Shown here in pieces: positions 1,983 through 21,207 of a stretch of DNA of 25,684 nucleotides. How positions within the stretch are numbered: position 1 is the first letter of the stretch; each line of letters opens with the position of its first letter. The notes under the pieces were generated by a model. It ran no database searches. It was not told the DNA's origin and was given only the letters and a program-made list of their open reading frames with translations. The DNA lies in contig JAYODI010000027.1 of assembly GCA_038279365.1 (NCBI GenBank), positions 36,021-61,704 on the forward strand, read 5' to 3'. The stretch is from Candidatus Latescibacterota bacterium. GTDB taxonomy: Bacteria; Latescibacterota; UBA2968. A program made the translations under genes and the position numbers.

Positions 1983-2071
1983 AACAAACCTCCCTATATA
2001 GTCACCGAAAACCTTTCGGCATCAAAAAGCACTTCTCCACAAATATCTGAAATATCTATGGTTAAAATGAT

Positions 2072-3163: not shown

Positions 3164-3230
3164 CCCATTAAGTTCGTAAGCGGTTACTAAAATCGTGCTT
3201 TATAGGGTTGGTGTCAATTGATAAAAATCA

Positions 3231-3317
3231 GTCACAGGTCACAGGTCATTGGCATGAAACCAAGAGATTGTCAATTACAAGGTTTTTGTTTTGACCTGAG
3301 ACTTGTAAACCTGTAAC
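3231..3317. repeat. Inverted pair of short heptamer tandem repeats (GTCACAG)n ... (CTGTRAC-like)n in a divergent intergenic region
   Basis: gtcacag-gtcacag-gtca at 3231-3248 and tgac-ctgagac-ttgtaaac-ctgtaac at 3292-3317; 3238-3248 pairs with 3292-3302 at 10/11. Confidence 0.55.
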
Positions 3318-3348
3318 AAACACCACTCATCGCCTCTGAGGAGCCGTT

Positions 3349-5385
3349 ATGTCCAAATCCCCCCTCAAACTGCCCAAAAACTTTAGCCCCACCACCAACA
3401 TGATCGCCCGCCCAGAAGGTGACAAAATTTATCATGCACCCCGTGCCGCTTTCGAACTGGCCTACACCCTACTCACCAACGGCCATATAGACGACATCGC
3501 ACAAGCCGAAAAAACAATTGCTGCCGCCTTAAAGGGCCAAGAAACACGCACAGGTGACCCGCACTTGGGCAACTTTTTATGGGAAGCAGAAGATGACGCT
3601 GTAGAAGACCTCAATGCCGTACAATTTTGTCTTTTCCAACTTGTACCTATCATGATTCAATATGGCACCCATCTCTCCCAAGACCTCCAAAAATCCTGTC
3701 AAAAAGCCATTCGTTTAGGCCTCGAAGAAATAGCCCGAATAGATGTACACCCACGCTACACCAACATTGTTATCAAAGACATCACCAACACCATTCTCGG
3801 TGGCGAATACTTACAAGACGATGCATTTAAAAAAAGAGGCTACGACAAATTTCACCGCTGGATGGCCTATACAGATCGCTCGGGTTGCCCATATGAATTC
3901 AACAGTCCAGGATATGCCGGTGTGGCCCTTCGGGTACTCAGTCGCCTCATTCTGCTCACACAAAACCAAACCATTCAAACACGCGCAGAAATCATGCGTG
4001 CACGCATTGGCCTAAGTGCCACCCTTCACATTCACCCAAGTACAGGCCGATGGGCAGGCCCTTTTAGTCGGGCTTATCGTGCCACTGCCGCGTGTGATGC
4101 AGAGCGAGAACTGCACCAAGTAAGAGATTGGCTCACCACCGGTATTCTCCCTCGTTGGATCGCCAACGCCTTGGCCAATCGCCCCGAAAAAATGGACCTC
4201 GTCGAAACCGCCGATGCCGACAACACCATCGTCCTATCAACCCACCACAGCCCTTCATTTTCACTTGGTGTATCCACGCAAGAGCTCACCAGCCAATCCA
4301 ATCGTTTCATTGCTGGCCAATCCAATTGCTTCATCGTACAACACACCACCCACGATGAAAACACAGGTGTCATTTATTCGCGCTATGTACTCAACGAACA
4401 TTGGTTAGGCGACTTTCGTCCTACCCCAGCACGCTCCAACATGGGTCTGCTCTTTGAAGAAGGTCAGTTCCACGGCGTACAACACAATAACCGCGCCATT
4501 TGCCTCTATGCACCGCGTGCTTTGGGGGCTTGGGAAACCTGCCACAGTGCCAAAGCCGTTATCGCCTGGCATCGCAAAGAGCATGTCACCCACATTTGGC
4601 TCAATGGAAAACCCGTTACGACCAGTCCCACATCTATCCCCCAAAACAGTACCCTTGTCGTACAAAGTGGCAACATTCTAACCGCCATTCGCCCACTTGC
4701 AAACACAGACCTTGGGCGCAATGCCCCTGTTCACCTCATTGAGCGCGACGGCCACCTCTGCCTCGAAATTTACAATTACAAAGGCCCCGAAAAAACATTC
4801 TGGGAACAAGCACATCCTGGTTCCTTTTACCAAGGCCAACCCCAATGTGGATTTTATGCCGAAATTGCCGAAACCACCGATTGGCCCAACCCACTCGACT
4901 TTTCAAAAGCTGTTGCCACGGGCGAGCTCAAAGACCACGCCGACCCGCGTGTCACCTTCGATGAAGGTGTTGAGCGATCTTGGTCGGTCGAATATACCCG
5001 CAACAACGAAACCTTAGGCATCGAAATCGAACTCATGGAATGGCAACTCAAACGCCGCTGGACGCACCAGGGCGACCTGGGCACCCCCATGCTCGATTCG
5101 CCAGTTGCCAAACAATCGCGTGATGGACATATTGAAATAGGTAACACCACCCTCACCTGTGGCCAACACCCAGCCTGGCTCTTCACCTGCCCCAGCACCA
5201 ATACCTATGTCGCTGCCTATCACGGCCCAACTCCCGCACCACTCACACTTACACTACCCAATGGCAAAGTCGAAATTTCATCGCTCACCTCAGGCCTCCT
5301 CATTTGGCAAGATGGCAAAGTCACCATCAACGCCTTAGACCTGGCCAATGAACCTATCATCATTGGCGGCGAACGCATCATATAA
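3349..5385 (+). CDS. Hypothetical 678-aa protein, probable alpha/alpha-toroid plus beta-sandwich, distant polysaccharide-lyase/heparinase-like
   Basis: Long ORF with GAGGAG RBS 5 nt before ATG; helical N-half with YTNI and YEFNSPGY motifs, beta-rich C-half. CDS is secure, function is inferred. Confidence 0.6.
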   Translation: MSKSPLKLPKNFSPTTNMIARPEGDKIYHAPRAAFELAYTLLTNGHIDDIAQAEKTIAAALKGQETRTGDPHLGNFLWEAEDDAVEDLNAVQFCLFQLVPIMIQYGTHLSQDLQKSCQKAIRLGLEEIARIDVHPRYTNIVIKDITNTILGGEYLQDDAFKKRGYDKFHRWMAYTDRSGCPYEFNSPGYAGVALRVLSRLILLTQNQTIQTRAEIMRARIGLSATLHIHPSTGRWAGPFSRAYRATAACDAERELHQVRDWLTTGILPRWIANALANRPEKMDLVETADADNTIVLSTHHSPSFSLGVSTQELTSQSNRFIAGQSNCFIVQHTTHDENTGVIYSRYVLNEHWLGDFRPTPARSNMGLLFEEGQFHGVQHNNRAICLYAPRALGAWETCHSAKAVIAWHRKEHVTHIWLNGKPVTTSPTSIPQNSTLVVQSGNILTAIRPLANTDLGRNAPVHLIERDGHLCLEIYNYKGPEKTFWEQAHPGSFYQGQPQCGFYAEIAETTDWPNPLDFSKAVATGELKDHADPRVTFDEGVERSWSVEYTRNNETLGIEIELMEWQLKRRWTHQGDLGTPMLDSPVAKQSRDGHIEIGNTTLTCGQHPAWLFTCPSTNTYVAAYHGPTPAPLTLTLPNGKVEISSLTSGLLIWQDGKVTINALDLANEPIIIGGERII

Positions 5386-5394
5386 AGGTTATCC

Positions 5395-5736
5395 ATGCCC
5401 ACATTTTGGCAAACGCTCGACACGTTTATCGAAACCTCAAAAATTGTCATTGATCGCCCCAAAGGATCGCCACACCCACGCTACCCAAACATCATCTACC
5501 CGCTCGACTACGGCTACCTAGAAAACACAACCGGCGGCGACGGCGACGGCATAGACATCTGGCTCGGATCCTTGACCAATCACATATTCGACGCCATTGT
5601 CTGCTCTGCCGATCAATACAAACGCGATGCCGAAATCAAGATCCTCTTAGGATGCACTGCCAAAGAAAAAGAAATCATTATCCATTTCCTCACCCACTAC
5701 GAGGTGGGTGCCATACTCATAGAGCGCCCAAAGTGA
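5395..5736 (+). CDS. Short inorganic pyrophosphatase family (family I-like) protein
   Basis: IDRPKGS, IYPLDYGYL..T, GDGDGID motif, D.E.K; 9 nt after the upstream stop. Confidence 0.8.
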   Translation: MPTFWQTLDTFIETSKIVIDRPKGSPHPRYPNIIYPLDYGYLENTTGGDGDGIDIWLGSLTNHIFDAIVCSADQYKRDAEIKILLGCTAKEKEIIIHFLTHYEVGAILIERPK

Positions 5737-5883
5737 TCTCCCTTTCCAAATGTGGCAGATAAGGGGGACCATCTTGTTTAATCTCTCACCACCAACAAGA
5801 GCCCTTCTTTGCCTCTTAATTTATATCTCTAAGAAAGAAGTCGTCGAAAACACAATCACTAAAAACCAAACCGAATAACAAAG

Positions 5884-6666
5884 TTGGAGCCAATTCAAAT
5901 GCAACCACAAGACCCCATCCTCAACGAAACCGAAGTTGAATACTTTCGTCGCAATGGTTACATCATTCGCACAGACCTCCTTACAGACGAAGAAATACAA
6001 GTATTCACCACCCTTTTTGACAACGATCGCGAACAATACAAATTTCGCTGGCACCCTTATGGTTATCACCAACACGCCAACTACGATGCCCTTGTCACCA
6101 CACCAGCTTTTGACAACGTGGTGCGCCACCCCAAAATTCTCTCTGCCGTTGAGCAACTTATGGGTGGCCCTGTTTGTTTTGGTGAAATTGGTGCCCGTTA
6201 TATGGCCCCTTTCAAGGGTAATCTTCATCAAAGTTGGCACCGCGACCGCCCCCATTGGAACGATCACCCACTCAGAATGGACTACATCCAATTGATGCTC
6301 TACCTCACCGACGTTCATGCCGAAACCCATTGTTTCTCACTCTCGCCCGAATCCATTCACGAGCCCATACTCAAAGACAACGACGCACAAATCAAACGCA
6401 GTGGCATCTCCGACATTCACGGCCCAGCAGGTACGGTGTGCCTCTTCAATGTTTCGGTGCTGCACACCGCCACCACACGCCCCACAGACAAAGATCGCAA
6501 AACCTTACAAATCTATTACGGCCACCGAGATCGCAAATACTTAGCCAACGACTCTGTCATTCCTCCCTTATTTTGGCGTGATCACAAAGACCCTGAAGCA
6601 CGTGCCTTTTATGGCAACCTCAACGAAGTCACCCAAATTTATATGCGTGCTTTTGGAGACAAATAA
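5884..6666 (+). CDS. Phytanoyl-CoA dioxygenase (PhyH) family Fe(II)/2-oxoglutarate dioxygenase
   Basis: FRRNGYII, HP.IL..VEQLMG, WHRD (HxD), GPAGTV.LF....LH (distal His), downstream Arg. Start may instead be ATG 5899, which follows GGAG. Confidence 0.85.
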   Translation: MEPIQMQPQDPILNETEVEYFRRNGYIIRTDLLTDEEIQVFTTLFDNDREQYKFRWHPYGYHQHANYDALVTTPAFDNVVRHPKILSAVEQLMGGPVCFGEIGARYMAPFKGNLHQSWHRDRPHWNDHPLRMDYIQLMLYLTDVHAETHCFSLSPESIHEPILKDNDAQIKRSGISDIHGPAGTVCLFNVSVLHTATTRPTDKDRKTLQIYYGHRDRKYLANDSVIPPLFWRDHKDPEARAFYGNLNEVTQIYMRAFGDK

Positions 6667-6721
6667 CCTCTTATACAAAAATCCGAACCTCATACCTGAT
6701 CATTGAAATAGAAAGGCTTTT

Positions 6722-7444
6722 ATGTCCGAAAAAAAACACATCCTCATCACCGGTGGTGCAGGTTTTGTTGCAGGCATGCTCCGCGAACACTGGGGCAACA
6801 CATACAACCTGCGTCTGGCCGACATCAACCCCGTCGAAAACCTATCTGCCCACGAAACCTTTGTCAAACTCGACATCACCAAACTCGATGAATTTCGCAG
6901 TGCGTGTGAAGGCATACACACCGTCATTCATTTGGCCGCCGACAGAAGCCCCAGTGCCGACTTTTACAAAACCTTACTCGATCTCAACATTATCGGCACC
7001 TACAACGCCTTCCACGCCGCACACGAGGCCGGCTGTAAACGCCTCATCTTTGCCAGTTCGGTCAATGCCATATTGGGCTACAAAGGCAAAACACCCGTTG
7101 AATGGGATGTGCCCATTTTCCCGACCAATGTTTATGGTGCCACCAAATGCTGGGGCGAAGCCTTAGGGCGCGTTTATTCCGAAACCCACAACCTCTCCAG
7201 CATTTGTGTGCGCTTGGGCAGCCCACGTTTTGACCCCAATGAAACCTATGACCCAGACAAACCCAGTATGCTCATCAGTCCCAGAGACACCGCCCAACTT
7301 TTTGAAAAATGTGTCGAAGTTGCAAACACACCTTTTGCTATTGTGCATGGTGTATCCAACAACAAAATCAACTGGATGGGCTTAGAAGAAACCAGCCAAA
7401 TTTTGGGATATCACCCACAAGATGGCACCGCCTTACAATCCTAA
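6722..7444 (+). CDS. NAD-dependent epimerase/dehydratase family (extended SDR), uronate dehydrogenase-like
   Basis: TGGAGFVA, RLADI, IHLAA, FASSVNA, VYGATK, VRLG, ISPRD, LGYHPQD; AAAGG upstream. Confidence 0.85.
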   Translation: MSEKKHILITGGAGFVAGMLREHWGNTYNLRLADINPVENLSAHETFVKLDITKLDEFRSACEGIHTVIHLAADRSPSADFYKTLLDLNIIGTYNAFHAAHEAGCKRLIFASSVNAILGYKGKTPVEWDVPIFPTNVYGATKCWGEALGRVYSETHNLSSICVRLGSPRFDPNETYDPDKPSMLISPRDTAQLFEKCVEVANTPFAIVHGVSNNKINWMGLEETSQILGYHPQDGTALQS

Positions 7445-8732: not shown

Positions 8733-9557
8733 ATGAAAATTATCATCTTAGCAACCTTGGGCGCACTCGTTTTACTCGGTGTGGGTGTGTACATTATTTG
8801 GAATTTTTCAGAACGCATTAAAATTGAAAAGCGCACCTATTTCCGCCTCGAAGACCGTTGGTTCTACGGCTTTTTGGGCTACACATCTATCACCGTCACC
8901 ATTTTCTTAATCTTGGTATTACAAACATCACTTACCCAACAAGAAAAAATATTGATCAACACCCAAACACGCTTCCAAGATGAAATGAGTGCCTTTCGCG
9001 ATCGCCTCAGCGAACAGACCGACAAATTATACGGCCAACTCAATGAAAAGGCCCAACTCACAGGTTCAGAAATTGAAGTCCGCGGCAAACTCCGCAATGA
9101 AATGGACCAACACAGGCGTACCCAAGAAGAACTCGACATCGCAAAAGATGCGCTCAACAAAACACAAACGCTCTTTCAATCTACCTATCGCGCTTATGTA
9201 GACAGCCTCAACACCGAGCGTGCGCTACACACGTCCACACAAAATCGTTTGGATCGCGAAATACGCATTCATGCAGAGGCAAGATCAGACCGCGACAAAA
9301 GTTTGCAAAATCTTAGCAAAGCCGAAGAACGCCTCCGTCTGCAAGACCGTCAACTCAAAGACTTAAACACCCTTTTGGATCGGGCACAAGCCAATGCCAA
9401 ACGTGCACAAGAAATCTCAGAACAAGCGGCCAAGCGATTGCTTCAAAAGGCCGATGAACACCAGCAAGGTCTCATGACCATTCAGGCCGCCACAGACACC
9501 ATTTATAAAAAAATAATGAAACACCCGCGTATACCCGAGCCCGAAGCCGAAAAGTAA
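8733..9557 (+). CDS. Membrane-anchored coiled-coil protein (two N-terminal TM segments), unknown function
   Basis: Hydrophobic segments at about residues 3-24 and 44-63, then about 200 aa of Q/E/K/R/L-rich heptad-like helix; AAAAGG upstream. Confidence 0.75.
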   Translation: MKIIILATLGALVLLGVGVYIIWNFSERIKIEKRTYFRLEDRWFYGFLGYTSITVTIFLILVLQTSLTQQEKILINTQTRFQDEMSAFRDRLSEQTDKLYGQLNEKAQLTGSEIEVRGKLRNEMDQHRRTQEELDIAKDALNKTQTLFQSTYRAYVDSLNTERALHTSTQNRLDREIRIHAEARSDRDKSLQNLSKAEERLRLQDRQLKDLNTLLDRAQANAKRAQEISEQAAKRLLQKADEHQQGLMTIQAATDTIYKKIMKHPRIPEPEAEK

Positions 9558-9598: not shown

Positions 9599-9647
9599 AC
9601 ACGCCAATTACTCAAAGTCTTTTACCGTTTGAATTTTGGAGGTTCCA

Positions 9648-10478
9648 GTGGAAAACAACAGGCGCATCATTTTGGTCGTCGGTGCCGCCGCCGTCGTGCT
9701 TGCCATTATATTATACATTGCATTTTTACCAGAAGGAGAAGGTCCACTCCAAGAAAGCAACCCACGTGTTGCCCAATTGGAACAAGAAGTGGAGCTTTAT
9801 ACTTCGCAAATAGATTCGATGAATGCCGTTTTTGATGCACTCAACAACCGTTTTGATTTGGTGCGCACCCAAATGGACAGCGCCAGGGCGTCCAACAAAG
9901 TCTTGCTGGCCTCTTTACACCGCGTTACACGGGAAATGAACGAGTACAAACGGCTTTATAAAGAACAAAGCACCCTCAACGATCAATTGCGTACAGAAAT
10001 TACCAATGTCAAAACCGAGCGTGATCGGGCCCTCACACAAGCGCAAGTGTTAAAAACCGCCGTTGACAGCCTCAATAACGAATTGTACAACCAAACCATC
10101 AGCCTCACCCGCCTCGAATCCACACTTGAAGAGGCATTGGGTGAAAGCAAAGACCTTAAAAAAACTGTCAACTCTGTGTTGGTTTATGTGGGAACAGAAG
10201 ACGAACTCAAACAACAAGGCTACCTCAACACATCGCGTTTCATTCGCAAAAATTATAAAGTAGCCGGTTTCCCAGATTTAGATAACGCCAAAGTCCTCCG
10301 CATTCCTGTTGGTGAAACCTTTACCTTACAAGGTGAGCTAAAAGAATTGTGTGACCGCCACGGCAAATTGGGCAAAGGCGACGAATTTGAACTCAGCACA
10401 GGCGCACAAGGGCAATCCATCATCTCCTTCACCGATGAGCTTTTAGTGGGGCAACGTATTCTCGCCGTCATTAAGTAA
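9648..10478 (+). CDS. Single-pass membrane coiled-coil protein with C-terminal beta domain, resembling the Bacteroidota Cbp1-like family
   Basis: GGAGG 5 nt before GTG 9648; NNRR plus hydrophobic TM, long coiled coil with IDS.N/VDSLN, then NSVLVYVGTEDELKQQGYL motif and a beta-rich C-terminus. Confidence 0.65.
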   Translation: MENNRRIILVVGAAAVVLAIILYIAFLPEGEGPLQESNPRVAQLEQEVELYTSQIDSMNAVFDALNNRFDLVRTQMDSARASNKVLLASLHRVTREMNEYKRLYKEQSTLNDQLRTEITNVKTERDRALTQAQVLKTAVDSLNNELYNQTISLTRLESTLEEALGESKDLKKTVNSVLVYVGTEDELKQQGYLNTSRFIRKNYKVAGFPDLDNAKVLRIPVGETFTLQGELKELCDRHGKLGKGDEFELSTGAQGQSIISFTDELLVGQRILAVIK

Positions 10479-10491
10479 AACCAGATTATCC

Positions 10492-10534
10492 AAATAAAAA
10501 AGCCCAGAGCGTAACGCTCTGGGCTTTTTTATTT
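10492..10534. terminator. Bidirectional intrinsic terminator between convergent genes
   Basis: aaataaaaaagcccagagcg-taa-cgctctgggcttttttattt, perfect 20-bp stem with A/T tracts on both sides. Confidence 0.92.
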
Positions 10535-10558
10535 ATGAGACATCTCTTAAGCACATCC

Positions 10559-10981
10559 TCACCACAAATGCACAAACACTGCCGGTCTTACCTTCTGTCC
10601 TGTAGGAGCCGTCGATAACAGAGAATCGGCATATGCCGCATCATTCACCATTTGCTCCCGACTGCCCCCTTTTAAAAAGAGATGCAAGTTGCGGTCGGGT
10701 TGTGCCACCAAACCATCCACCGTTTTTTGCAGCTCACCCGGCTGCAACATCCGCTTTACCGAACGGCCATCCTCCGAAAACCCCAACCCTTTTGGGGTAT
10801 AAACAATCACCACATCTCCCTCATCAGGGTCATGGTGATGAACACGCCACACGGGTTGCGACACATTCAATATCATAATGCCCAAACACAACATCAACAT
10901 CATAATACCCAAAAACAGCTCTTTGCTCACATCGTGTTCTTCGGCATCAGAAGTTGCGCGTTGCAAAAAACGCCCACGCAT
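10559..10981 (-). CDS. Atypical ExbD/TolR-like single-pass membrane protein
   Basis: ATG 10981 overlaps the upstream TAA (TAATG) with GGAGG RBS; basic N-terminus MRGRFLQR, acidic stretch, TM LFLGIMMLMLCLGIMIL, small alpha/beta domain (ELQK.V..L...PDRNLHL.LKG); directly follows an ExbB-like gene. Confidence 0.6.
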   Translation of the reverse strand: MRGRFLQRATSDAEEHDVSKELFLGIMMLMLCLGIMILNVSQPVWRVHHHDPDEGDVVIVYTPKGLGFSEDGRSVKRMLQPGELQKTVDGLVAQPDRNLHLFLKGGSREQMVNDAAYADSLLSTAPTGQKVRPAVFVHLW

Positions 10982-11799
10982 TACCCTTGCCTCCCATCCA
11001 GTGCCGATTCGCGCATCGCCAGCCATTTGCGTTCCAAATCAGCCATGCGCCCCAACAACACATCAAAGGTTTTGCGCAAAGGCAAATACGTAAGCAACGC
11101 AACCAATGTGGTCTGAAATGCCAACACCAAACCGCCAGCCATATCGCGTAAAACTTTAAATGTTTCGGTGGCTTCGTCCAAATTGGTCAATCCTTCGGCC
11201 ATCAATAAAATACCACACACTGTGCCCAAATATCCATAAAAAGGAATACGCGTCAATGCACGTTGCCCAGCAAACAATCGGTCACCCAACACCACCATCA
11301 AGTCATCCAACGCTTCATCATCACGCGCTTTCAAATCGGCGTATCCATCGCGGCTTTGTCGCAACATGTCCACATGTTGCACCCGCAATATGGTTAAGGT
11401 GTTTTTTTGGTTTTTCTTATTGTTTTCCATCAAGGCCTGATCTTCACGGTCTAAACGCAACCACACATGAACCAACAACATCACATGCGTCATTGTCGCA
11501 GCCAAAATAAGCACATAAGACATCCGCCCGATCCATTCTACCCACCCAGCACCACCTGGGGCAAACAAATAATAATATATGATAATCCCCGCAACACCAG
11601 CACCTGCCAAACCCCCAGCAACAGCCCCAATCAGATTGCCATATTCACTTGGCAAACCATATTGCTTTTCATAACTACAAATCACCTCCATGCGTTGCAT
11701 CAAAATCAACGCACCCGCCATCGCACAAACAGCCCAAAACAACACCGAAGACAACAATTCTATCCCACTCAATGTAATTCTCCCCAAAAAACTACGCAT
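10981..11799 (-). CDS. MotA/TolQ/ExbB proton channel family protein with extra N-terminal TM helices
   Basis: IPFYGYLGTVCGIL and GGLVLAFQTTLVAL match the family P..G.LGTV.G and G...A..TT signatures; three additional hydrophobic helices. Start is ATG 11799 or TTG 11811, both overlapping the upstream gene's end. Confidence 0.8.
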   Translation of the reverse strand: MRSFLGRITLSGIELLSSVLFWAVCAMAGALILMQRMEVICSYEKQYGLPSEYGNLIGAVAGGLAGAGVAGIIIYYYLFAPGGAGWVEWIGRMSYVLILAATMTHVMLLVHVWLRLDREDQALMENNKKNQKNTLTILRVQHVDMLRQSRDGYADLKARDDEALDDLMVVLGDRLFAGQRALTRIPFYGYLGTVCGILLMAEGLTNLDEATETFKVLRDMAGGLVLAFQTTLVALLTYLPLRKTFDVLLGRMADLERKWLAMRESALDGRQG

Positions 11800-13033
11800 C
11801 ACGCCGAACAATACTTTTCCAGTTTAAAATAACATATAGCACATAAATACCCAAAATAACCGTAGGGATGAGCAACCCCAACCGCGCATGACGTCCAAAA
11901 CCACCACCACCCGCGTTCCCCACCCCACCTTCACCTTCAAGGTTTGAAGTTCCCGACACGCCTTTTTTACCGTCACTTTGTCCTTTTTCTTTTGCAATTC
12001 CTCGGTCTTCTGGTGGTTTGTAATCTTGCGTGCGATCGCCCTGATCACCCGATGTGGCAATCAAACCGCCATCCGTCAAATTTGCTGCCACCTCTCCTTT
12101 TAGCAAACGTTTGTCAGGATAAATCAACACCTGTTGTTCAGCTGGCAAGTCTTGCGACCAATGGCGCACCTTTTCCGAAATTGGCTCCGACATCGCTTCC
12201 TTTAAAGGCCCAGCTTTCCCCAATGTCAAACCAACCGACCGAACACTTTGCCCCAAAAATGTTGGAATAGGCATCTGCGCATCGGGGGAAGCCTTCAGCT
12301 CATTCAACAACGTTTCACGACGGGCTTGCAAAATCGAAAGCTGTTTGATAAAGTCATGATAATTCATTTCACGCTTTTGTGATCGCTCGGGGGCGCCTGT
12401 ATCCGTGGCTTGGGCAACAGCGTTTTGAACCGCCGCCTGGTCAAATGTGACAGCCACTTCTACAACACCAAAAACACGTGTGCCCCAAATGGGTTCGGCA
12501 CCAGGAATATCAGGTGATGCATGTGCATACGTGATGGCGATCGCCTGCCCTTCCGCCGATGTCCAACGGTCATTAGAAACCACCACCGGATACAAGGTGC
12601 CTTGCCCATCTCGCAAATACAAACCACACAAAAAACCACTCTCAACCCAATCGGTATCCCAACAACGTGCGCGAATTTGATTTTGTGCCTTTAAGTATAA
12701 ATCGGGCACAACCACTTCAACTGGCGTTAAGCGCGTCTCTCCCACCACAAAGTCATTCAGCCACACACGCGCCTCATCATCGGCCCAAAAAATCATTACC
12801 AAAGACATACCCTCAGGCACAATGCGCTCAGACCGTCCTTCTGGCAACGTGGGTTTTTGAAGCACCTCATCATCCACCTGATGCATTGCACGCACCAAAC
12901 TGTCAATGCCAGCCGACACCAGGTTATATTCACGCCGAAGCGCAAAAAGGGCTTCATCGGCAGCCATGACAGACCCAAAAGAATGCATCGTCACAACACC
13001 CATCAGAAACACGAATCGAATCCATTTATACAT
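11792..13033 (-). CDS. Secreted, C-terminally membrane-anchored protein with lectin/galactose-binding-like beta-sandwich
   Basis: Start at ATG 13033 gives a signal peptide (MYKWIRFVFLMGVV...VMA/AD); WADDEARVWLN...NQIRARC...GFLCGL...VVSNDRW pattern; short coiled coils; Gly-rich linker, TM and basic tail. The ORF-track extension to 13273 overlaps the upstream gene. Confidence 0.65.
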   Translation of the reverse strand: MYKWIRFVFLMGVVTMHSFGSVMAADEALFALRREYNLVSAGIDSLVRAMHQVDDEVLQKPTLPEGRSERIVPEGMSLVMIFWADDEARVWLNDFVVGETRLTPVEVVVPDLYLKAQNQIRARCWDTDWVESGFLCGLYLRDGQGTLYPVVVSNDRWTSAEGQAIAITYAHASPDIPGAEPIWGTRVFGVVEVAVTFDQAAVQNAVAQATDTGAPERSQKREMNYHDFIKQLSILQARRETLLNELKASPDAQMPIPTFLGQSVRSVGLTLGKAGPLKEAMSEPISEKVRHWSQDLPAEQQVLIYPDKRLLKGEVAANLTDGGLIATSGDQGDRTQDYKPPEDRGIAKEKGQSDGKKGVSGTSNLEGEGGVGNAGGGGFGRHARLGLLIPTVILGIYVLYVILNWKSIVRRDA

Positions 13034-13082: not shown

Positions 13083-14207
13083 TTAATAATCTGCAAAAGA
13101 ACCATCATCTTCATGCCAAAACATACCACGCAACCGATGGGTATCATCTCGAAGTGCTTCAATGTCAGCATCATCCATATCCACACCCAAACCCGGTTCG
13201 GTGGGCAATTCGATAAAACCATCTTTAAAAACCAAAGGCGTTTTAAAAAGCCCTTCACCTCGCCGATGACCACCTTCGCAGATCAACATGTTTGGCACAG
13301 TAGCCATCACATGCACCGATGCCGCCACACCAATGGGTCCTGCCGCATTGTGCGGTGCAACTGCCATATTGTGAATCTCGGCCATGCCCGCTATCTTTTT
13401 CAACTCCAACATCCCGCCACAGTGGCGAATATCGGGTTGTAAAATGGCGCACATTTCTCGTTCAATCAATTCTCGAAAGCCCCAACGTGTCAAATGCCGT
13501 TCACCCGTTGCAATGGGCACCGTAGTCGATTGCGACAACCCCAACAACGCTTCATTGTTTTCGGGGTGACAAGGTTCCTCGGCAAATAGAGGACGCAACG
13601 GTTCCAATTCTTTAACAAAAATACGCGCCATCGTCGGGCTCAACCGCCGATGCAAATCCACCGCAATATCCACATCGTCCCCCACAGCCTCTCTCACCGC
13701 TGCCACACGCGACACCATAAAGTCAATGGTCTTGGGTGTGTCCACAAACCGCACGGGTCGAGGCGTGGCCCCCATTTTCACCGCCTTAAAACCCTGTGCT
13801 ACGGCCTTCTTTGCGTTTTCTGCACATTCTTCAGGCGTTGTACCCCCTGTGCCCGTATAAACCCGAATCCGGTCGCGCACCTTCCCACCCAACAACTGCC
13901 ATACAGGCATGCCTACCTTTTTCCCAAACACATCCCACATGGCCATCTCAATACCGCTTAAAGCCCCCACCAACACCGGCATGCTTCGGCTGTAACTCGA
14001 CCGATACATTGCTTGCCAATGGTCTTCAATTTGCAGCGGGTCTTTGCCCACCAAATAGGTGGCCATATCATCTACGGCCTGAGCCACAACGCGCCAATGC
14101 TCATAATTCATCGGCTCGCCATATCCGGTAATGCCTTCATCGGTAAACATCTTCAACACCATCGCCCGACCCTGAATGGGTATTGTTTCAAATCCTGTAA
14201 TTTTCAT
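13083..14207 (-). CDS. dgoD: Galactonate dehydratase-like enzyme (enolase superfamily, mandelate racemase subgroup)
   Basis: MKIT..ET, TDEGITGYGEP, SGIEMAMWD..GK..GMPVWQLLGGKVRDRIRVY, GFKAVKM, VDLH, AEEP, TGER, QPD, APHN, C-terminal WHEDDGSFADY; AAAAGGA RBS. Substrate is uncertain. Confidence 0.75.
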   Translation of the reverse strand: MKITGFETIPIQGRAMVLKMFTDEGITGYGEPMNYEHWRVVAQAVDDMATYLVGKDPLQIEDHWQAMYRSSYSRSMPVLVGALSGIEMAMWDVFGKKVGMPVWQLLGGKVRDRIRVYTGTGGTTPEECAENAKKAVAQGFKAVKMGATPRPVRFVDTPKTIDFMVSRVAAVREAVGDDVDIAVDLHRRLSPTMARIFVKELEPLRPLFAEEPCHPENNEALLGLSQSTTVPIATGERHLTRWGFRELIEREMCAILQPDIRHCGGMLELKKIAGMAEIHNMAVAPHNAAGPIGVAASVHVMATVPNMLICEGGHRRGEGLFKTPLVFKDGFIELPTEPGLGVDMDDADIEALRDDTHRLRGMFWHEDDGSFADY

Positions 14208-14289
14208 ATCAATAATCCTTTTGAAACCACGAATAAACGCAGATACAAATATGTGTGTCCATCAGTATCATCTGGGATCACAGGTGATC

Positions 14290-15171
14290 TTATTTTTGAG
14301 CATAATTCTTTTGAGCCTCTTGAATCACTTTGGCAATTTCACCAGCAAACCGAATTTGGCTGTCATCTTCAGGCGCATATCCAATCACCTTTCGGGCATT
14401 GTCAATACTCCAAAAACGGTGAGTGTTGCCACTGATGCCAAAGAACACTTGAAACGGTATGCCATTTTCATCTTCAATGTTTTCTGTTTCAATGCTCTTA
14501 ATCACCATCTGTGCCAAATCGCGCCCACTAAAATATGCCCCCAACTCGCGGTGCATTTTCTTTAAACCACTCAGTGCCACCCCAGGTGTCGGCTCTGCCG
14601 ATTGGCCGTCCATAATATTGTCTCGGGGTGCTCCAATGCGAATGTGTACATTTTCCAACCGCTTGCCATCGTTGTTTTTACCCGTTGCAAAAACAAACCC
14701 CAAATGTTCATACGTCGATTTTGCCCAACCATAAAAATTATCCGACAATGGCAACATGTCCGTTGTCGCAAAATCCAGTTTGTCATCCCAAATCAAGCGT
14801 TCATAAAAATCACATGCATGATTTGAACTCATCACAACCAAGCGTTTTACACCCTCCTCCACGCATGTTTGAAAAACATTATAACACATGCGCACATTGT
14901 CCGACTCTTTCCAATAGTCGGTATGATGCCAATCCACAGTACCTTTAAACCCACTGTGTACAACCGCATCTGCACCCTTAAAATGATGCCGATACGCATC
15001 TCGGCTTGCATTTGTCAAATCAACTATTTGTACACCGTCTATTTCTTCACCCGCACTGTTGGCCGTTCTCACATCCAGCAACACCAAATCATATTTTTCG
15101 CGCAACTGTTTCAACATCCGCCCCACCACATATCCCGAAGCTCCAGTAACCACCACTTTTTTCTTTGCCAT
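14290..15171 (-). CDS. NAD-dependent epimerase/dehydratase family (extended SDR), tandem paralog 2
   Basis: TGASGYV, LLDV, SSNHA, SDNFYGWAK, RIGAPR, GISGNTH.FW.I.NARKVIGY.PEDDS; AAAAGGA RBS. Confidence 0.85.
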   Translation of the reverse strand: MAKKKVVVTGASGYVVGRMLKQLREKYDLVLLDVRTANSAGEEIDGVQIVDLTNASRDAYRHHFKGADAVVHSGFKGTVDWHHTDYWKESDNVRMCYNVFQTCVEEGVKRLVVMSSNHACDFYERLIWDDKLDFATTDMLPLSDNFYGWAKSTYEHLGFVFATGKNNDGKRLENVHIRIGAPRDNIMDGQSAEPTPGVALSGLKKMHRELGAYFSGRDLAQMVIKSIETENIEDENGIPFQVFFGISGNTHRFWSIDNARKVIGYAPEDDSQIRFAGEIAKVIQEAQKNYAQK

Positions 15172-15222
15172 AAGTGAAATCCTTTTGTCTATGCTAAAAA
15201 TCCACGTATCTCATCGACACAT

Positions 15223-16077
15223 CTATTCTTTTGAATACGTCTCTTGTGCTTCCAAAATAACTTTCGAAATCTTATCGGCAAACTTGATCTGACTGTCGTC
15301 TTCAGGTTCATAACCAATCACTTTTCGCGCATTGGAAATCGTCCAAAAGTTATGCGTGTTGCCGCTGATGCCATAAAAGATCTGAAATGGCACACCATGT
15401 TTGTTGTCAATATTCTCTGTCTCAATACTTTTTACCACCAACTGCACCTGATCGCGCACACTCAAATAAGCCCCCAAACCACGATGCATGCGTTTTAATT
15501 CATCCGCACGGGCACGATCGATATCCGATTCTCGTGGCCCTCCCACACGCAGTTGTACATTCTCAAGCCGTTTGCCCCCATTCATTAACCCCGTCGCAAA
15601 CGTAAACCCAAGCAATTCATACGATGCTTTGGCCCAGCCATAATAGTTGTCCGACAAAGGATAATCATCGGGCGTTACAAATTCTTTTTTGCCTGCCCAA
15701 ATTAAATTTTCATAAAAATCTGCGGCATGGTTGGAGCTGATCACCACCGCGCGTGGCACACCTTCTTCAATGCACGTTTGATACACGTTAAACGCCATAT
15801 CCACATTGTTCATCTCGGCTTCAAACCGCTCCGAAGGATCTTTGGCTCGCGTAAAACCACAATGCACCACCGCATCTTGTCCTTTAAAGTATTTGCGATA
15901 CTGATCGCGATCTTTATGCAACAAATCAACTACAATTGCCCCTTCTACTTCCACACCCTCACGATTTGTCGTTTTCACATCCAAAATCGTCACATCATAT
16001 CGCTCGCGCAGCGCAGGCAACATGCGCCCTGCCACATAACCCGTTCCGCCCGTAATCAACACCTTCTTTTTGGCCAT
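15223..16077 (-). CDS. NAD-dependent epimerase/dehydratase family (extended SDR), tandem paralog 1
   Basis: TGGTGYV, ILDV, SSNHA, SDNYYGWAK, RVGGPR, same C-terminal block as its neighbour; GAAGGAG RBS. Confidence 0.85.
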   Translation of the reverse strand: MAKKKVLITGGTGYVAGRMLPALRERYDVTILDVKTTNREGVEVEGAIVVDLLHKDRDQYRKYFKGQDAVVHCGFTRAKDPSERFEAEMNNVDMAFNVYQTCIEEGVPRAVVISSNHAADFYENLIWAGKKEFVTPDDYPLSDNYYGWAKASYELLGFTFATGLMNGGKRLENVQLRVGGPRESDIDRARADELKRMHRGLGAYLSVRDQVQLVVKSIETENIDNKHGVPFQIFYGISGNTHNFWTISNARKVIGYEPEDDSQIKFADKISKVILEAQETYSKE

Positions 16078-16106
16078 TCATCTCTCCTTCATACCGACAA
16101 TTGTCT

Positions 16107-16865
16107 CTATAATGGAAAAGGTTTCTCTGTCTTCGCAAAATTACCAAATCGATCCTCACCCCGAAGCAATATCGGTTGCCACGCCTGTTTGATCGAATTC
16201 AAATTGACTTGTTTTGCATATGGCGGAATATACCGAACCGTAAGCGCACAACGCCGGCGGGTAGAACGATTGGGATTACTGGCATGAAACAACTGGCCAT
16301 CATGCACAGACATTTGACCCGCTTTTAATATCACATCAATCGCCGAGCGATCATCCACCAATTCGTCGGGAATTTCTTGATTGATGCTCAGCAAATTCCC
16401 TTCACGCTTCGATTTGTCGTGGGTGGCAATGCCGTTTTTATGCGATTTAGGAATAAACCGCATACATCCATTTTCCACATCGGCATCGTCAATCGCAATC
16501 CAGGCCGTATGTGCAATAGGCGGTTCCAACCCCCAATAAGTGATGTCTTGATGCCATGCCACAAATGCCTTGGCTTCTGGGTCTGCATACTTACAAAAAA
16601 AGTGCGTCGACAAAAGCATCACATCTTCACCCATCAAGGCCTGCATCACATCCAGCACCCGCTTGTCCGTAGCCAGTTGCCAAATAAATGCTTCATCAAA
16701 ATGACGGGCTTGCAAACCAACCTGACATTTCTCTTTGCCTTCGCGTTTTTCCAACGCATCAAAAGCATCGCGATACGCTTTAATTTCTGCATCGCTAAAC
16801 ACATTCACTGGGCTCACAAAACCCTGTTCTTCATACGTTTCTTTTAATGACGTCACAACAGCCAT
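16107..16865 (-). CDS. Phytanoyl-CoA dioxygenase (PhyH) family Fe(II)/2-oxoglutarate dioxygenase
   Basis: YEEQGFVSP, VAWHQD.TYW, TAWIAIDDA..ENGCM.FIP.SH, LKAGQMS.H....FHAS.PNRS.RRR; AAAGGA RBS. Confidence 0.92.
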   Translation of the reverse strand: MAVVTSLKETYEEQGFVSPVNVFSDAEIKAYRDAFDALEKREGKEKCQVGLQARHFDEAFIWQLATDKRVLDVMQALMGEDVMLLSTHFFCKYADPEAKAFVAWHQDITYWGLEPPIAHTAWIAIDDADVENGCMRFIPKSHKNGIATHDKSKREGNLLSINQEIPDELVDDRSAIDVILKAGQMSVHDGQLFHASNPNRSTRRRCALTVRYIPPYAKQVNLNSIKQAWQPILLRGEDRFGNFAKTEKPFPL

Positions 16866-17077
16866 AACCTTATCCTTTCAAAAAGTTGCTCATAAACCTT
16901 GTGGGTATAAAACTATGTGGAATCATCACCCAACGCAACCGCTTTTCAATGCCATAATCTTTCTGCTTCCATCTCACCATTTTCAAATATATCTTGTATC
17001 ACACATCGTTCATATTTATCTATGTGTACCTTCTGTTTATTTATCGTCGCATTTCAATTTTAATTTTTGGAGTTTTC

Positions 17078-18193
17078 ATGAAAATCACCGATATCACAGC
17101 CATTGTACTGCGCTTGCCCCATGTAACTGCCGATTGTGATGGCACACAAGACACCTGCCTCATTCGCATAGACACCGATGAAAACATAACGGGTTGGGGC
17201 GAAGTTGATTCATGTCCATCAGTGGTAAAAGCCATCATAGATGCCCCCCTCTCACACCAAATCTGCAATGGCATGGCCAATGCCTTGCATGGGCAAGATC
17301 CACTATCTATAGATGTGTGCATGCAAAAACTTGATCAAGCCGCCAACTATTATGGCCGCACAGCAGTAGGCGCTCATGCGATGGCTGGTATCAACATTGC
17401 CCTCTGGGATATCGCAGGGAAAACCCACAATTGCCCCATTTACCAACTTTTTGGAGGGCCGCATAAAACAAAATTCCGCGCCTATTGCTCCATCCTGTTT
17501 GGAAATACCCCACAAGAAACAGGAGAACGGGCGCGGAAACATGCCGATTTGGGTTTTACGGCCATTAAGTTTGGTTGGGGGCCGATGGGGCAAAGCGAAA
17601 AAAACGATATCGCCTTGGTGCACGAAGCCAGAAAAGGCGCGGGCGACAACATCGACATACTCATTGATGCAGGGCAGGTCTGGAATTGGAAAACAGCGCT
17701 CAAACGCGCCCATCAATTTCTCGAATACCGCCCCTTTTTGCTCGAAGAACCCCTACACCCCGAAGACGTTTCAGGTTATGCCCACCTCACCGCCGAAAGT
17801 CCATTGCCCATCGCTACGGGTGAAGCAGAAGCGCGTTATATCGACTTCGAGCGCCTCATCACCCAAGGCGGTTTGGATTGGATTCAGCCCGACCCAGGGC
17901 GGTGTGGCATTTCCAACTTTGTCGAAGCCGGGCGCATGGCCTATCGCCACCATCGTAAAGTGGTTAACCACAGTTTCAAAAGTGGCATCACCATCGCCGC
18001 ATCTCTCCACGCTTTGGCAGCCGTTCCCCACGGAGACATATTCGAATATTGTATGGCCGACTCACCCCTTCGCCACGACCTCACACACGAATCATTCAAC
18101 ATCGACCACGAAGGTTATGTTCATGTGCCCAACGCACCAGGCCTTGGTGTGACCATCAACCAAGATACCATAGACAAATACCGCGTGGCATAA
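17078..18193 (+). CDS. Mandelate racemase/muconate lactonizing enzyme family protein
   Basis: Start at ATG 17078 after GGAG (MKITDI); IDTDE.ITGWGE, INIALWDIAGK, GFTAIKFGW, IDAG/LEEP/TGE ligands, QPD, NHSF, FEY, PGLGV. Confidence 0.9.
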   Translation: MKITDITAIVLRLPHVTADCDGTQDTCLIRIDTDENITGWGEVDSCPSVVKAIIDAPLSHQICNGMANALHGQDPLSIDVCMQKLDQAANYYGRTAVGAHAMAGINIALWDIAGKTHNCPIYQLFGGPHKTKFRAYCSILFGNTPQETGERARKHADLGFTAIKFGWGPMGQSEKNDIALVHEARKGAGDNIDILIDAGQVWNWKTALKRAHQFLEYRPFLLEEPLHPEDVSGYAHLTAESPLPIATGEAEARYIDFERLITQGGLDWIQPDPGRCGISNFVEAGRMAYRHHRKVVNHSFKSGITIAASLHALAAVPHGDIFEYCMADSPLRHDLTHESFNIDHEGYVHVPNAPGLGVTINQDTIDKYRVA

Positions 18194-18200
18194 CCAAATG

Positions 18201-19277
18201 TTACTCCAAAAAACCACGCACACCGTCGCCCTTACCTGCCACAGGACGGTGAATCACAACGTGTTGTCCATCGTTCACACCTGCTTGATAGGCATCTGTC
18301 ATACGCACACCACCACCTTGCCGGGTTTGTACATTGGGGTTCAGATATCGAAAATAGGTCTGCAACTGTGCATCGCCTTTCCAAATCAGTGCCTGCGTTT
18401 TGGCCAGCGATTGTGTTTGTGATTCCAATTTCTGATAAAATCCAGCCAATACCCCAGCAAAATATCGCTGGCGTTCCCGATTGTTTTTGACGTTTTGTGT
18501 CAGGCGATAGGTTTGCCACAACTCATCCAACACGCGTATCAAATAGTCATAAACATAAACAGCCATATCCAAATTTTCGGGTGTACCAAACACTTGCATC
18601 ACGGTTCCCAGCTGATCGCGATGCACATCATAGCTTTGTACCCAAAGTACTTCCACAAAAAAGAACCGACCCAAAAGCGACCCCAGCCAAAGTTCAGCCG
18701 ACGTATGTCTGCCCTTTACGTCACCTAAGCATCGCATTTCAAACCGGCGTTCCCGATCCAATGCCACCAAATCGATGTTGTATTTCATCAGCAATTGATG
18801 TGCTTTTTGCATAGCCGCTTGTGCTTCGTGTTCATTGGGGCTATTGGCCAACGAAAGCACTTTTTGTAACAAATGCAAAATGCGATCATCTTCCGTAACT
18901 TCAACCATCAAATCATCTGCACTTGCACGCGCCTTTGCGCTACATCGCAATTTTTCACACGCCAAATGAAAAGACGCACCATGCGGGTCTTCATCGTGAA
19001 CCTGAAGCACTTCATCCACATATTGGTGCGCCATCTCATGTCGCAAGGTGTCCATCACAGACAACCACGCATCGCGCTGAACGTGTACATCCGAAATCAC
19101 CAACGTGCGTCGTTCACGTTGCCAATGCCCCAATGTGGTTCTCCCCTCACCCAAACGAATGACGGGCAACCGCATCGCATCATTTAAATAAAGCGTATTA
19201 TAATGCTGCCACCACATCACCAACTTGCGTGTCCAAGCGGCGCGCAAGTCGGCAAGAAGTGCATCATTTTGTGTCAT
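18201..19277 (-). CDS. SprT-like zinc metalloprotease domain fused to DUF2786-type domain
   Basis: LG.W, TLRHEMAHQ (HExxH) and PHG..F...C as in SprT; KVLSLA.SPNEHEAQAAM.KA..LL.KYNI is a DUF2786-type helix hairpin; C-terminal AY.AG..DG. TAATG overlap with dapF. Confidence 0.8.
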   Translation of the reverse strand: MTQNDALLADLRAAWTRKLVMWWQHYNTLYLNDAMRLPVIRLGEGRTTLGHWQRERRTLVISDVHVQRDAWLSVMDTLRHEMAHQYVDEVLQVHDEDPHGASFHLACEKLRCSAKARASADDLMVEVTEDDRILHLLQKVLSLANSPNEHEAQAAMQKAHQLLMKYNIDLVALDRERRFEMRCLGDVKGRHTSAELWLGSLLGRFFFVEVLWVQSYDVHRDQLGTVMQVFGTPENLDMAVYVYDYLIRVLDELWQTYRLTQNVKNNRERQRYFAGVLAGFYQKLESQTQSLAKTQALIWKGDAQLQTYFRYLNPNVQTRQGGGVRMTDAYQAGVNDGQHVVIHRPVAGKGDGVRGFLE

Positions 19278-20149
19278 TAACCACCTAATTCTCGCACAAA
19301 AGAAGCACTTAATGCTCCGCGCCCCACTTCGGCAACAGGGCCTTGCATGGTGAGGTTAAATTGGTCATCCACATCAATCTTCAAATTACCACCCGGTGCT
19401 TTCACGGTCACCTGAGACTTCACAAGCCCCAACTTAACAGCTGCACTGGCAGCCGCACAAGACGACGAGCCCGAAGCTTGGGTTTCACCGGCACCGCGCT
19501 CCCAAATAAGAATGTAAATTTCTTTTGGGCCTGTTGGTACAGCCAACTGCACATTGATGCGTTTTGGAAAAATCGAATGGTTTTCCAACTCGGGCCCTAA
19601 ACGCAACAAATCTTCACGCGTCCACTTTTGGCCTTTCGGCTTAAACACCACGCAGTGGGGGTTGCCCACACTCACGCCCGTAAACACCAATTTTTCGCCT
19701 GCCGCCGTGATCGGTTGTTCAATCAATTCATCTACTTTCAAAGAGCAAGGCAAAGCCTTGGGTGCAAATGTGGCCTGACCCATCTCTACGGTTGCGGCAC
19801 TGGCATCTCCATGTTTGTCAATGTGCAAATCAATGCTCACCAACCCACCCAACGTATCTACGGTAAATGATTTTTTACGCGTTTTTTTTGTGGCATGTAA
19901 ATACCGTGCAAAAATGCGCAACCCATTGCCAGACTTTTCGGCCTCACTGCCATCGGGGTTCCAAATGCGCAAACCAAAATCGGCCTTTTTTGAATCTTCC
20001 AATGTCAAAATACCGTCGCTGCCCACGCCCCAATTTCGGTCGCAAATGCGTTGAATGCGTTTGGGGGTAAGCTTAAATGTCAGTTCTTTTGGGTCCATCA
20101 CGATATAATCATTCCCCAACCCATGACCTTTAAAAAAACCGTTCTTCAT
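19277..20149 (-). CDS. dapF: Diaminopimelate epimerase, Ser/Ser catalytic variant
   Basis: FFKGHGLGNDY, CDR..GVGSDG, I.NPDGSEAE.SGNG.R, SVGNPHCV, FP.R.NV, WERGAGET.ASGS, PGG.L; GAGGAG RBS before ATG 20149. Confidence 0.88.
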   Translation of the reverse strand: MKNGFFKGHGLGNDYIVMDPKELTFKLTPKRIQRICDRNWGVGSDGILTLEDSKKADFGLRIWNPDGSEAEKSGNGLRIFARYLHATKKTRKKSFTVDTLGGLVSIDLHIDKHGDASAATVEMGQATFAPKALPCSLKVDELIEQPITAAGEKLVFTGVSVGNPHCVVFKPKGQKWTREDLLRLGPELENHSIFPKRINVQLAVPTGPKEIYILIWERGAGETQASGSSSCAAASAAVKLGLVKSQVTVKAPGGNLKIDVDDQFNLTMQGPVAEVGRGALSASFVRELGG

Positions 20150-20210
20150 AATCACTCCTCTATCTTGTTAATTGTATCAACCACCCCAAAACCATCAAAG
20201 GTGACCTGTT

Positions 20211-21182: not shown

Positions 21183-21207
21183 AAACCCCAAAACCTCTCA
21201 TCATGGA

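Follow-up and report, generated by a model that had tools for sequence, protein, structure and literature searches.

A conserved three-gene locus in one class of Candidatus Latescibacterota, encoding a candidate ion-driven motor and a predicted exported, lectin-like protein

Introduction

The MotAB-type motor outputs known to us are a handful, namely flagella, the Ton and Tol systems, gliding together with type IX secretion, and Zorya, and each new motor partner has revealed a new bacterial use of the membrane potential outside the cytoplasm. A 5:2 architecture is established for the complexes of the Tol and Ton systems and of the flagellar stator whose structures were solved. In the present work a stretch of 25,684 nucleotides from a Candidatus Latescibacterota genome (assembly GCA_038279365.1, contig JAYODI010000027.1, positions 36,021 to 61,704; hereafter the window, numbered from its first letter) was analysed, and three of its minus-strand genes, named A, B and C, were found to be a real, conserved and unannotated three-gene system. 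B could be recognized as a divergent subunit of the MotA/TolQ/ExbB family, C is a candidate subunit of the ExbD/TolR type, and A is a predicted exported protein with a lectin-like sandwich. The chances seem to us about even that the trio encodes a motor (B5C2) that is specific to this lineage, belongs to the 5:2 ion-driven superfamily of MotAB, ExbBD, TolQR and ZorAB, and is coupled to A.

Less familiar relatives of these motors were described recently. In the portion of PMC12204202 (Mol Biol Evol 2025) available to us, 'force transducers' with vWA domains were predicted next to tolQR-like motors, and further 5:2-driven systems were said to await discovery. The 'generic ion transporter' (GIT) was introduced, in the portion available of PMC12505986 (mBio 2025), as a heterogeneous set of non-flagellar MotAB relatives with lineage-specific additions such as DUF2341 and DUF3450; the word 'Latescibacter' is absent from the main text of that paper as available. 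The 2015 genome paper on Latescibacteria (PMC4454575), in the part available, mentioned only a canonical TonB-ExbB-ExbD system. Searches for Latescibacter together with ExbB or TolQ, and of the broader literature, with supplementary files outside their scope, returned no published description of the trio.

Organization of the locus

The trio was composed of three open reading frames (ORFs) on the minus strand, from 13033 to 10559 of the window, with overlapping stop and start codons, and each of them could be translated without internal stops. Gene A (13033-11792; ATG 13033-13031, TAG 11794-11792) encoded 413 residues (P0001), gene B (11799-10981; ATG 11799-11797, TAA 10983-10981) encoded 272 residues (P0002), and gene C (10981-10559; ATG 10981-10979, TGA 10561-10559) encoded 140 residues (P0003). 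A and B overlapped by 8 nucleotides within GTGATGCGTAG at 11802-11792 (ATGCGTAG), while the overlap between B and C was one base, in TAATG. A promoter scan of the 49-nucleotide gap 5' of A gave no convincing sigma-70 site.

A perfect, GC-rich hairpin was located at about 10491-10535, twenty-odd bases past the stop codon of C. It was revealed by folding (-32.4 kcal/mol, z = -6.2; none of 200 shuffles was equal) and had not been listed by a pattern scan. An A-run and a T-run bordered the hairpin, one at each side, and it was placed between C and a convergent plus-strand gene ending at 10478, so both could be terminated by it; it was recorded, from folding and sequence and with no strand, as a bidirectional intrinsic terminator. 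The coordinates and motifs given in the preliminary description of this DNA, which had reported the three genes, their overlaps and a perfect terminator, all proved correct.

Conservation and distribution of the trio

Three sets of loci, which share genomes in part, were used to follow the trio. In all 15 loci of the first set (that of the window among them) A, B and C adjoined one another in this order, and likewise in 14 of 14 loci of a second order, where identities were 34-44% for A, 40-47% for B and 58-65% for C. Among 80 loci of named genomes, B and C were present in all 80 and A in 78, and in both loci without A the contig ended at B. The trio was therefore conserved as a unit, and the conserved adjacency of its genes is not chance. 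Nearly all of the named records were metagenome-assembled genomes of 'Candidatus Latescibacterota', with a minority labelled Gemmatimonadota, Planctomycetota or 'bacterium'.

A single copy of B was present in 38 of the 41 genomes of its own order, and in 21 of the 22 high-quality ones. Across 168 species genomes of the phylum, A was found in 111 and C in 107, with nearly matching phyletic patterns. By family, A and C were found respectively in 28 and 27 of 30 genomes (f1), 22 and 21 of 22 (f2), 59 and 58 of 76 (f4), and one and none of three (f3), and neither was found in families f5-f14 of the same genome set. The trio is confined to one class of Candidatus Latescibacterota, across two orders. 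Genomes with only one of A and C were mostly fragmented assemblies. In one locus of genome G077 (L156, G077:C1, 2591-6685) a transposase gene of the IS200/IS605 type stood in place of B and C, and two genes that commonly neighbour the trio, cc2 and cc1 (see below), were still downstream.

Gene B, a divergent MotA/TolQ/ExbB-family subunit

B matched the Pfam family PF01618 (MotA_ExbB) with 25.1 bits over residues 180-256 (gathering cut-off 22.9), and the canonical PF01618 paralogues of the same genome scored 107-110 bits. It remained below the NCBIfam equivalogs for TolQ (TIGR02796), ExbB (TIGR02797) and MotP, with 11.9-13.8 bits against cut-offs of 135-394; the tolQ and exbB equivalogs gave 13-14 bits against cut-offs of 206-221. 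The Pfam stretch corresponds to a two-helix channel core (PFYGYLGTVCGILL ... GLVLAFQTTLVALLTYLPL; 11032..11262, minus strand) with invariant T193, T230, T231 and P240.

A family profile was made from 19 members, and the invariant columns were taken from these sequences, namely P186, G189, G192-T193-V194, G196-I197, T230-T231 and P240. They match the signatures PxxGxxGTVxGI and (A/T)T....P of E. coli TolQ and ExbB and of the ExbB in the window's own genome. The Glu of the canonical 'GIAEAL' stretch, which is present in those three proteins, was absent in B. With this profile TolQ chains were retrieved from the PDB (hmmsearch E 0.006), and E. coli TolQ was aligned by hhalign with a probability of 91.7% (E 7.8e-7), the aligned stretch being TolQ 138-215 (138-212 for B 180-256), which covers its last two transmembrane (TM) helices.

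Four hydropathy segments of at least 1.6 were present in B (15-33, 56-74, 96-114 and 221-241), and residues 186-205 aligned with TM2 of TolQ, which together make five TM helices. The loop after helix 1 was Arg-rich in the other order. This suggests an N-out topology, in which helices 3-5 would be the three helices of ExbB/TolQ and helices 1-2 an added N-terminal hairpin.

B had been described as a five-TM protein of ExbB/MotA type. Its Pfam match puts it in the MotA/TolQ/ExbB family, and the scores far under the equivalog cut-offs and the separate clade set it apart from canonical ExbB/TolQ. In a tree of the channel core with 16 rows, the B family formed one clade (SH-aLRT, an approximate likelihood-ratio support, of 96) apart from the four ExbB/TolQ rows; this tree was saturated, with branches at the program maximum, and shows the unity of the clade without placing the family.

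Gene C, a candidate ExbD/TolR-like subunit with Glu in place of Asp

C was the most conserved protein of the trio. Its relatives were 57-94% identical to the protein encoded in the window, with a mean column identity of 73%, and those of B and A were 39-87% and 30-76% identical, respectively. A search of 1.84 billion representative proteins with the C profile gave 12 matches at E ≤ 0.001, which were one full-length cluster, fragments of the C family and two weak multi-stretch hits.

Residues 16-40 (10862..10936, minus strand) contain HD(V/I)SKE followed by a single TM helix, defined by invariant columns. Residues 16-39 were nearly invariant, with HD(V/I)SKE and then LFLGIMMLMLCLGIMILN, and HD[VI]SKE preceded the TM motif in 107 of the 107 loci that had this motif (108 loci scanned; the 107 overlap in genomes and are not independent observations). 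Such invariance of the TM helix and of HD(V/I)SKE is what would be expected of a pore-lining axle helix. In eight comparators (E. coli TolR, ExbD and MotB, and two ExbD, two MotB and a ZorB-like protein from the window's own genome), an Asp stood directly before about 18 hydrophobic residues in all eight. Glu21 of C was at exactly the position of this Asp; it is preceded by Lys20 and, one turn of the helix back, by Asp17. The Asp that defines the B-subunit families is thus missing, but an acidic residue is still kept.

The AlphaFold model of C had a mean predicted local distance difference test score (pLDDT) of 77.8, with 85-92 over most of the periplasmic part, and was composed of a long N-terminal helix and a small alpha/beta domain. 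Residues 55-140 (10562..10819, minus strand) were assigned from this model and a structure search as a probable periplasmic TolR-like alpha/beta domain. Among 48,161 PDB chains the best match was E. coli TolR (5by4_A; Z 6.7, root-mean-square deviation (rmsd) 3.7 over 88 residues, model residues 43-140), and TolR of H. influenzae (2jwk) gave Z 5.2. Foldseek ranked TolR 5by4 third (E 0.16, probability 0.75). In a language-model look-up an 'ExbD family' cluster was second at 0.93, which is taken as a lead only. The top structure match is the one family that the gene position predicts. C had been called an atypical ExbD-like protein; the single N-terminal TM helix and the best fold match to TolR agree with this name, while a sequence match to ExbD/TolR was not obtained.

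Gene A, a predicted exported protein with a lectin-like sandwich

No Pfam or NCBIfam family matched A at E ≤ 1, DUF2341 included. Its profile retrieved 232 relatives, and the 120 listed were 379-445 residues long, carried no Pfam domain and were unnamed or called 'hypothetical protein'. Residues 1-24 (12962..13033, minus strand) have the features of a Sec-type signal peptide (K3 and R6, a hydrophobic core, then VMA|A; hydropathy segment 7-25), and N-terminal hydrophobic stretches were also present in the aligned homologues. At the other end, residues ~383-405 (11819..11887, minus strand) were predicted to be a C-terminal TM anchor with a short basic tail (hydropathy segment 385-403, score 2.51; helix 381-403 in the model). 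From sequence, A would thus be an exported protein anchored by its C-terminus. It had no TonB_C or TolA match in Pfam, and instead of an N-terminal SHLS/His anchor it had a signal of the cleavable type and the C-terminal anchor.

Between these ends, a beta-sandwich resembling lectins and carbohydrate-binding modules (CBM) was assigned to residues ~71-200 (12434..12823, minus strand) from the AlphaFold2 (AF2) model, the structure search and the invariant columns. W83, D85, D86, E87, N93, R101, D126, T127, D128, P174, D175 and W183 were invariant in the sandwich, acidic clusters (D85 D86 E87; D126 T127 D128) among them. Further invariant short motifs close to the membrane were LTLGKA, R-x-LKG and DY-x-PP, followed by a low-complexity Gly/Lys stretch and then the anchor. 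Residues ~71-177 matched the GH78 rhamnosidase of Streptomyces (3w5n_A, chain residues 165-298; Z 8.8, rmsd 3.4, 105 residues), and the sandwich matched a Pleurotus ostreatus lectin (6kbj_A, Z 8.7) and a Bacillus GH78 rhamnosidase (2okx_B, Z 8.5). With Foldseek the match to 3w5n had a probability of 0.96 but an E of 0.05, and rows for the whole protein were at noise level. A weak sequence match of the sandwich region to a GH2 sugar-binding domain was also seen (E 0.066), and a look-up of A in the ESM Atlas gave nothing above 0.78. The earlier view of A as a protein with a signal peptide, a carbohydrate-binding-like sandwich and a C-terminal anchor is backed by hydropathy and by these matches (Z 8.5-8.8) at the level of fold; 'lectin-like' is accordingly a statement about the fold, and glycan binding is suggested by fold resemblance.

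Proposed mechanism

The assembly of B5C2, its stoichiometry, the use of an ion, the docking and the ligand of A and the cellular role are what we infer for the trio, as follows. If B and C are built like the homologous 5:2 complexes of Tol, Ton and the flagellar stator, a pentamer of B would surround a dimer of C helices. The five B subunits would make a ring in the membrane with the extra N-terminal TM hairpin on its outside, and the two C subunits would put their invariant TM helices into the pore of B. Glu21 of C would take up and release the coupling ion, changing between a protonated and a charged state against the ring of Thr193, Thr230 and Thr231 of B. The TolR-like periplasmic domains of C would sit above the ring, and the movement could pass to these domains and to A.

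A would leave the cytoplasm by the Sec route and remain anchored to the inner membrane by its C-terminal helix, with the lectin-like sandwich facing the periplasm. The inverted topology of A, the hairpin of B and the membrane-proximal motifs of A suggest possible contact sites, and A would dock probably on the extra hairpin of B and/or on the periplasmic dimer of C, via LTLGKA, R-x-LKG and DY-x-PP. The motor could then exert a pull or a rotation on a head that binds glycan or some other ligand. A prediction of the complex (B once, C twice, A 24-413) gave a median score of 0.38, and 0.27 with B replaced; this gives no verdict and was counted neither way.

The trio was a single-copy core set whose flanks change between the orders, which favours a housekeeping task in the envelope over the uptake of a single substrate. 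This task could be a general one, for instance to tether, remodel or sense a glycan layer, which we think more probable than the import of a single sugar. More tentatively, and with the odds leaning against it, the trio could be an undescribed envelope machine found throughout this class of Latescibacterota and a functionally new kind of 5:2 motor. With Glu as its ion-coupling residue, it would transmit work to a lectin-like partner whose topology is inverse to that of TonB and TolA, maybe together with a pair of coiled-coil lipoproteins that spans the periplasm, and would so link the membrane potential to a step of glycan handling.

The convergent coiled-coil pair

The gene ending at 10478 was cc2 (9636..10478, plus strand; 280 residues, P0135), in which an N-terminal anchor is followed by ~150 residues of coiled coil and a globular C-terminal part of ~100 residues. 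It was preceded by cc1 (8733..9557, plus strand; 274 residues, P0136), for which hydropathy indicated two N-terminal TM segments before a long coiled coil. No real Pfam family was found for either. When the ORFs of the 80 loci were clustered, five gene families were common to both orders, namely A, B, C, cc1 and cc2; cc2 was adjacent and convergent in 62 and cc1 in 60 of these loci, the other order included. The TM anchor of cc2 was replaced in the other order by lipobox-type signals (…SCG…, …ACA…) at the N-terminus, which make the protein extracytoplasmic there. A second pair resembling cc1/cc2 was also observed (L149, G000:C198, 4094-5966, minus strand), with a cc2 copy 51% identical, a 5'-nucleotidase-like gene and an amino-acid permease gene adjoining, and no motor genes nearby.

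A had been described as the only partner of the motor. This holds insofar as no TonB_C or TolA domain was detected by Pfam within the operon, but cc1 and cc2 adjoined the trio in 60-62 of 80 loci. The trio might therefore be part of a larger unit, a five-protein trans-envelope machine in which cc2 would be a periplasm-spanning analogue of TolA, and A would be accessory or regulatory. Its layout of anchor, long coiled coil and C-terminal globular domain is TolA-like, and cc2 and cc1 were the sole other genes common to the loci of both orders, being kept at ~30% identity between the orders while the genes upstream differ. The extracytoplasmic cc2 of the other order fits as well, and so does its distribution, since the genomes with cc2 (117 of 168) belong to the class that has the trio. 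The pair is, however, encoded on the opposite strand behind the terminator and so is not co-transcribed with the trio. The link is further weakened by genus g5 (21 species), where cc2 was 0.7-3 Mb away from the trio, and by genera in which cc2 was found without it (four of five genomes in g28, one of two in g14); the second pair stands beside unrelated genes, and no SHLS-type His was visible in the anchor of cc2. We regard the five-protein machine as unlikely. The connection of cc1/cc2 with the trio is suggestive and not obligatory, and the pair may supply a TolA-like arm to the motor.

Points against a motor, and a relic as the alternative

Several results weigh against an ion-driven motor coupled to A. 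B exceeded the Pfam cut-off by only 2 bits, and alignment was possible for its last 80 residues alone. C had no Pfam or NCBIfam match at E ≤ 1, PF02472 included, its profile found no ExbD, TolR or MotB chain in the PDB at E ≤ 10, and hhalign with E. coli TolR gave a probability of 0.2%. Its fold match was middling, as Z 6.7 is under the caution line of 8 of the tool. The canonical essential Asp was absent in C, with Glu21 in all 107 loci having the TM motif, and this Glu, one carbon longer and at the membrane edge beside Lys20, may or may not be able to shuttle protons. For A, the AF2 model was poor overall (mean pLDDT 61.7, with 74-86 over the sandwich), the structures matched by the sandwich are generic folds (Z 8.5-8.8, 13-16% identity over ~100 residues), and the topology is the reverse of that of every known motor-coupled transducer. 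In G077, a genome of a third family assembled in 2 contigs, A was intact while B and C were undetected, an exception to the fragmented assemblies which indicates that A can at least be kept alone.

B and C could instead be a degenerate, non-energized relic of a Tol/Ton system, which would serve A as a scaffold or a gated channel, for example in envelope sensing or signalling. The absence of the canonical Asp in C and of the GIAEAL Glu in B would fit such a relic, as would the extreme divergence from all characterized motors. Against this, the pore-facing parts were the most conserved ones: the TM helix and HD(V/I)SKE of C, and the Thr and Pro residues of B, were invariant across an overall divergence of B of ~40-45%, which speaks for a catalytic core that still works and against a relic. 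The canonical position of C has also retained an acidic residue. A relic is accordingly judged rather improbable, and B and C as a working motor coupled to A is preferred.

Other motors of the genome

The assembly of the window was 6.0 Mb in 199 contigs and 98.5% complete, and it contained five PF01618 matches including B. The first of the others was a canonical ExbB in a group flanked by TPR genes, with two ExbD and then a TonB_C protein after it. The second was a MotA followed by two MotB inside a flagellar cluster, and both tandem MotB paralogues (L146, G000:C14, 4184-6648, minus strand) carried MotB_plug and OmpA domains. The third was an ExbB-like gene that had a weak TonB_C protein before it and adjoined an ExbD match. 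The fourth was a ZorA-like protein followed by an OmpA-like protein (L148, G000:C127, 5914-7900); the former had a weak MotA_ExbB N-terminus and a coiled coil of ~300 residues, the latter an N-terminal helix bearing Asp, so that this genome has, besides B and C, another non-canonical motor pair. A search of the genome with the TolB equivalog gave only PD40-repeat matches, all below the cut-off. Since separate canonical sets of ExbB-ExbD-ExbD-TonB and MotA-MotB-MotB were present, the trio is additional to them and is not the Ton system or the flagellar stator.

Several ExbBD sets per genome are common, and B and C could be an extra energizer for transducers of the TonB/TolA type encoded elsewhere, with A an unrelated neighbour. 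TonB_C proteins were indeed present elsewhere in the genome, yet both canonical TonB_C genes already adjoin ExbB-type genes of their own. B was far under the ExbB/TolQ equivalog cut-offs and C had no ExbD match in Pfam, and A, which overlaps B by 8 nucleotides, was never separated from it in complete loci, all of which makes an extra energizer very unlikely. Still harder to credit is an anti-phage defence module of the Zorya type, for which the MotAB-like nature of ZorAB and the separate ZorA-like and OmpA-like pair of the genome could be cited, because no ZorA, ZorB or other motor-related PADLOC model matched at E ≤ 1 (the sole PADLOC matches, weak and unrelated, were B to Csx1, E 0.0055, and C to CARF7--CARF_RelE, E 0.0053), no effector-like gene was present, and the single copy and stable synteny across the class are unlike patchy defence islands.

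Neighbouring genes and expression

The 5' neighbours of the trio in its own order were enolase-superfamily and epimerase genes, and a gene of the enolase family was present in 39 of the 80 loci. In the other order a Na/Ca exchanger and a short-chain dehydrogenase/reductase (SDR) were found instead, and a TPR protein gene abutted the start of A in 18 of 36 loci (for example L109:1793-2866, plus strand). TPR genes are given as frequent companions of TolQR-like motors in the available portion of PMC12204202.

The window was dense in repeated genes for catabolism of sugar acids and polysaccharides at 13-7444 and 13083-25670, including three of the enolase superfamily, at least four NAD-epimerases/dehydratases, two PhyH dioxygenases and a heparinase II/III-like lyase, and this rest of the window looks like a glycan-utilization region with paralogous modules. 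A SprT-like / DUF2786 / DUF7168 protein (18201-19277, minus strand) was an odd neighbour amid these metabolic genes.

The stretch was found almost word for word in metagenomes from estuaries, the sea and salt marshes (nine rows with at least half of the words, two of them possibly the source sample). In four metatranscriptome libraries of different studies, short contigs with 0-1 differences were located on parts of A (11855-12080, 12453-12734, 12535-12690 and 12639-12934), C (10563-10742 and 10775-10977), cc2 (10152-10484) and cc1 (8808-8958). None covered the interior of B (~10978-11854) in these four libraries, which is not evidence of absence. These contigs give weak support to the trio genes being real and expressed, as carry-over of DNA is possible.

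Comparison with known systems

As a candidate 5:2 motor coupled to A, the trio shares several features with TolQ-TolR(-TolA) and ExbB-ExbD(-TonB). B has the PF01618 region, with the last two TM helices and their Thr and Pro signature, and a short condensed cytoplasmic loop, and the genes are adjacent and translationally coupled. C is predicted to have a layout like that of ExbD/TolR, with a short cytoplasmic N-terminus, one TM helix and a small alpha/beta periplasmic domain for which TolR is the best, if middling, structural match. In contrast, B has five predicted TM helices where TolQ and ExbB have three, the two extra ones being N-terminal, and C, which shows no resemblance to ExbD/TolR in sequence, has Glu where these have the essential Asp. 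A partner with the N-terminal SHLS helix of TonB/TolA is missing, and the constant third gene is A, with a signal peptide and a C-terminal anchor.

The predicted fold of A ~71-177 resembles CBM67, the N-terminal sandwich of GH78 alpha-L-rhamnosidases, and the P. ostreatus lectin (3w5n, 2okx and 6kbj). A lacks the enzyme domain and has 13-16% identity with them, and a common fold does not show a common ligand.

The vWA transducers, as described in the available portion of PMC12204202, resemble A in being neither TonB nor TolA, in having an adhesive or ligand-binding head and in standing with a divergent TolQR-like motor. According to the same portion, they keep an N-terminal TM helix with SHLS/His or bear the Asp pore helix themselves; the trio differs in the lectin-like head, the C-terminal anchor and the pore helix with Glu on a separate protein, C. 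The GIT, in the available portion of PMC12505986, is like the trio in having A subunits with lineage-specific additions and B subunits without plug, linker and OmpA-like parts. In the trio, however, the extra beta-sandwich is the product of a separate gene, not a fusion to the GIT-type A subunit, and no DUF2341 match was found.

As a core set of genes throughout a class of uncultured marine and estuarine bacteria that degrade polysaccharides, the trio could bear on how these build their envelope or handle glycans. If it is a motor, it would depart from its relatives in three ways, with Glu in place of the Asp on which every studied relative depends, an extra TM hairpin in the ring subunit, and a partner of inverted topology with a sugar-binding-like head.

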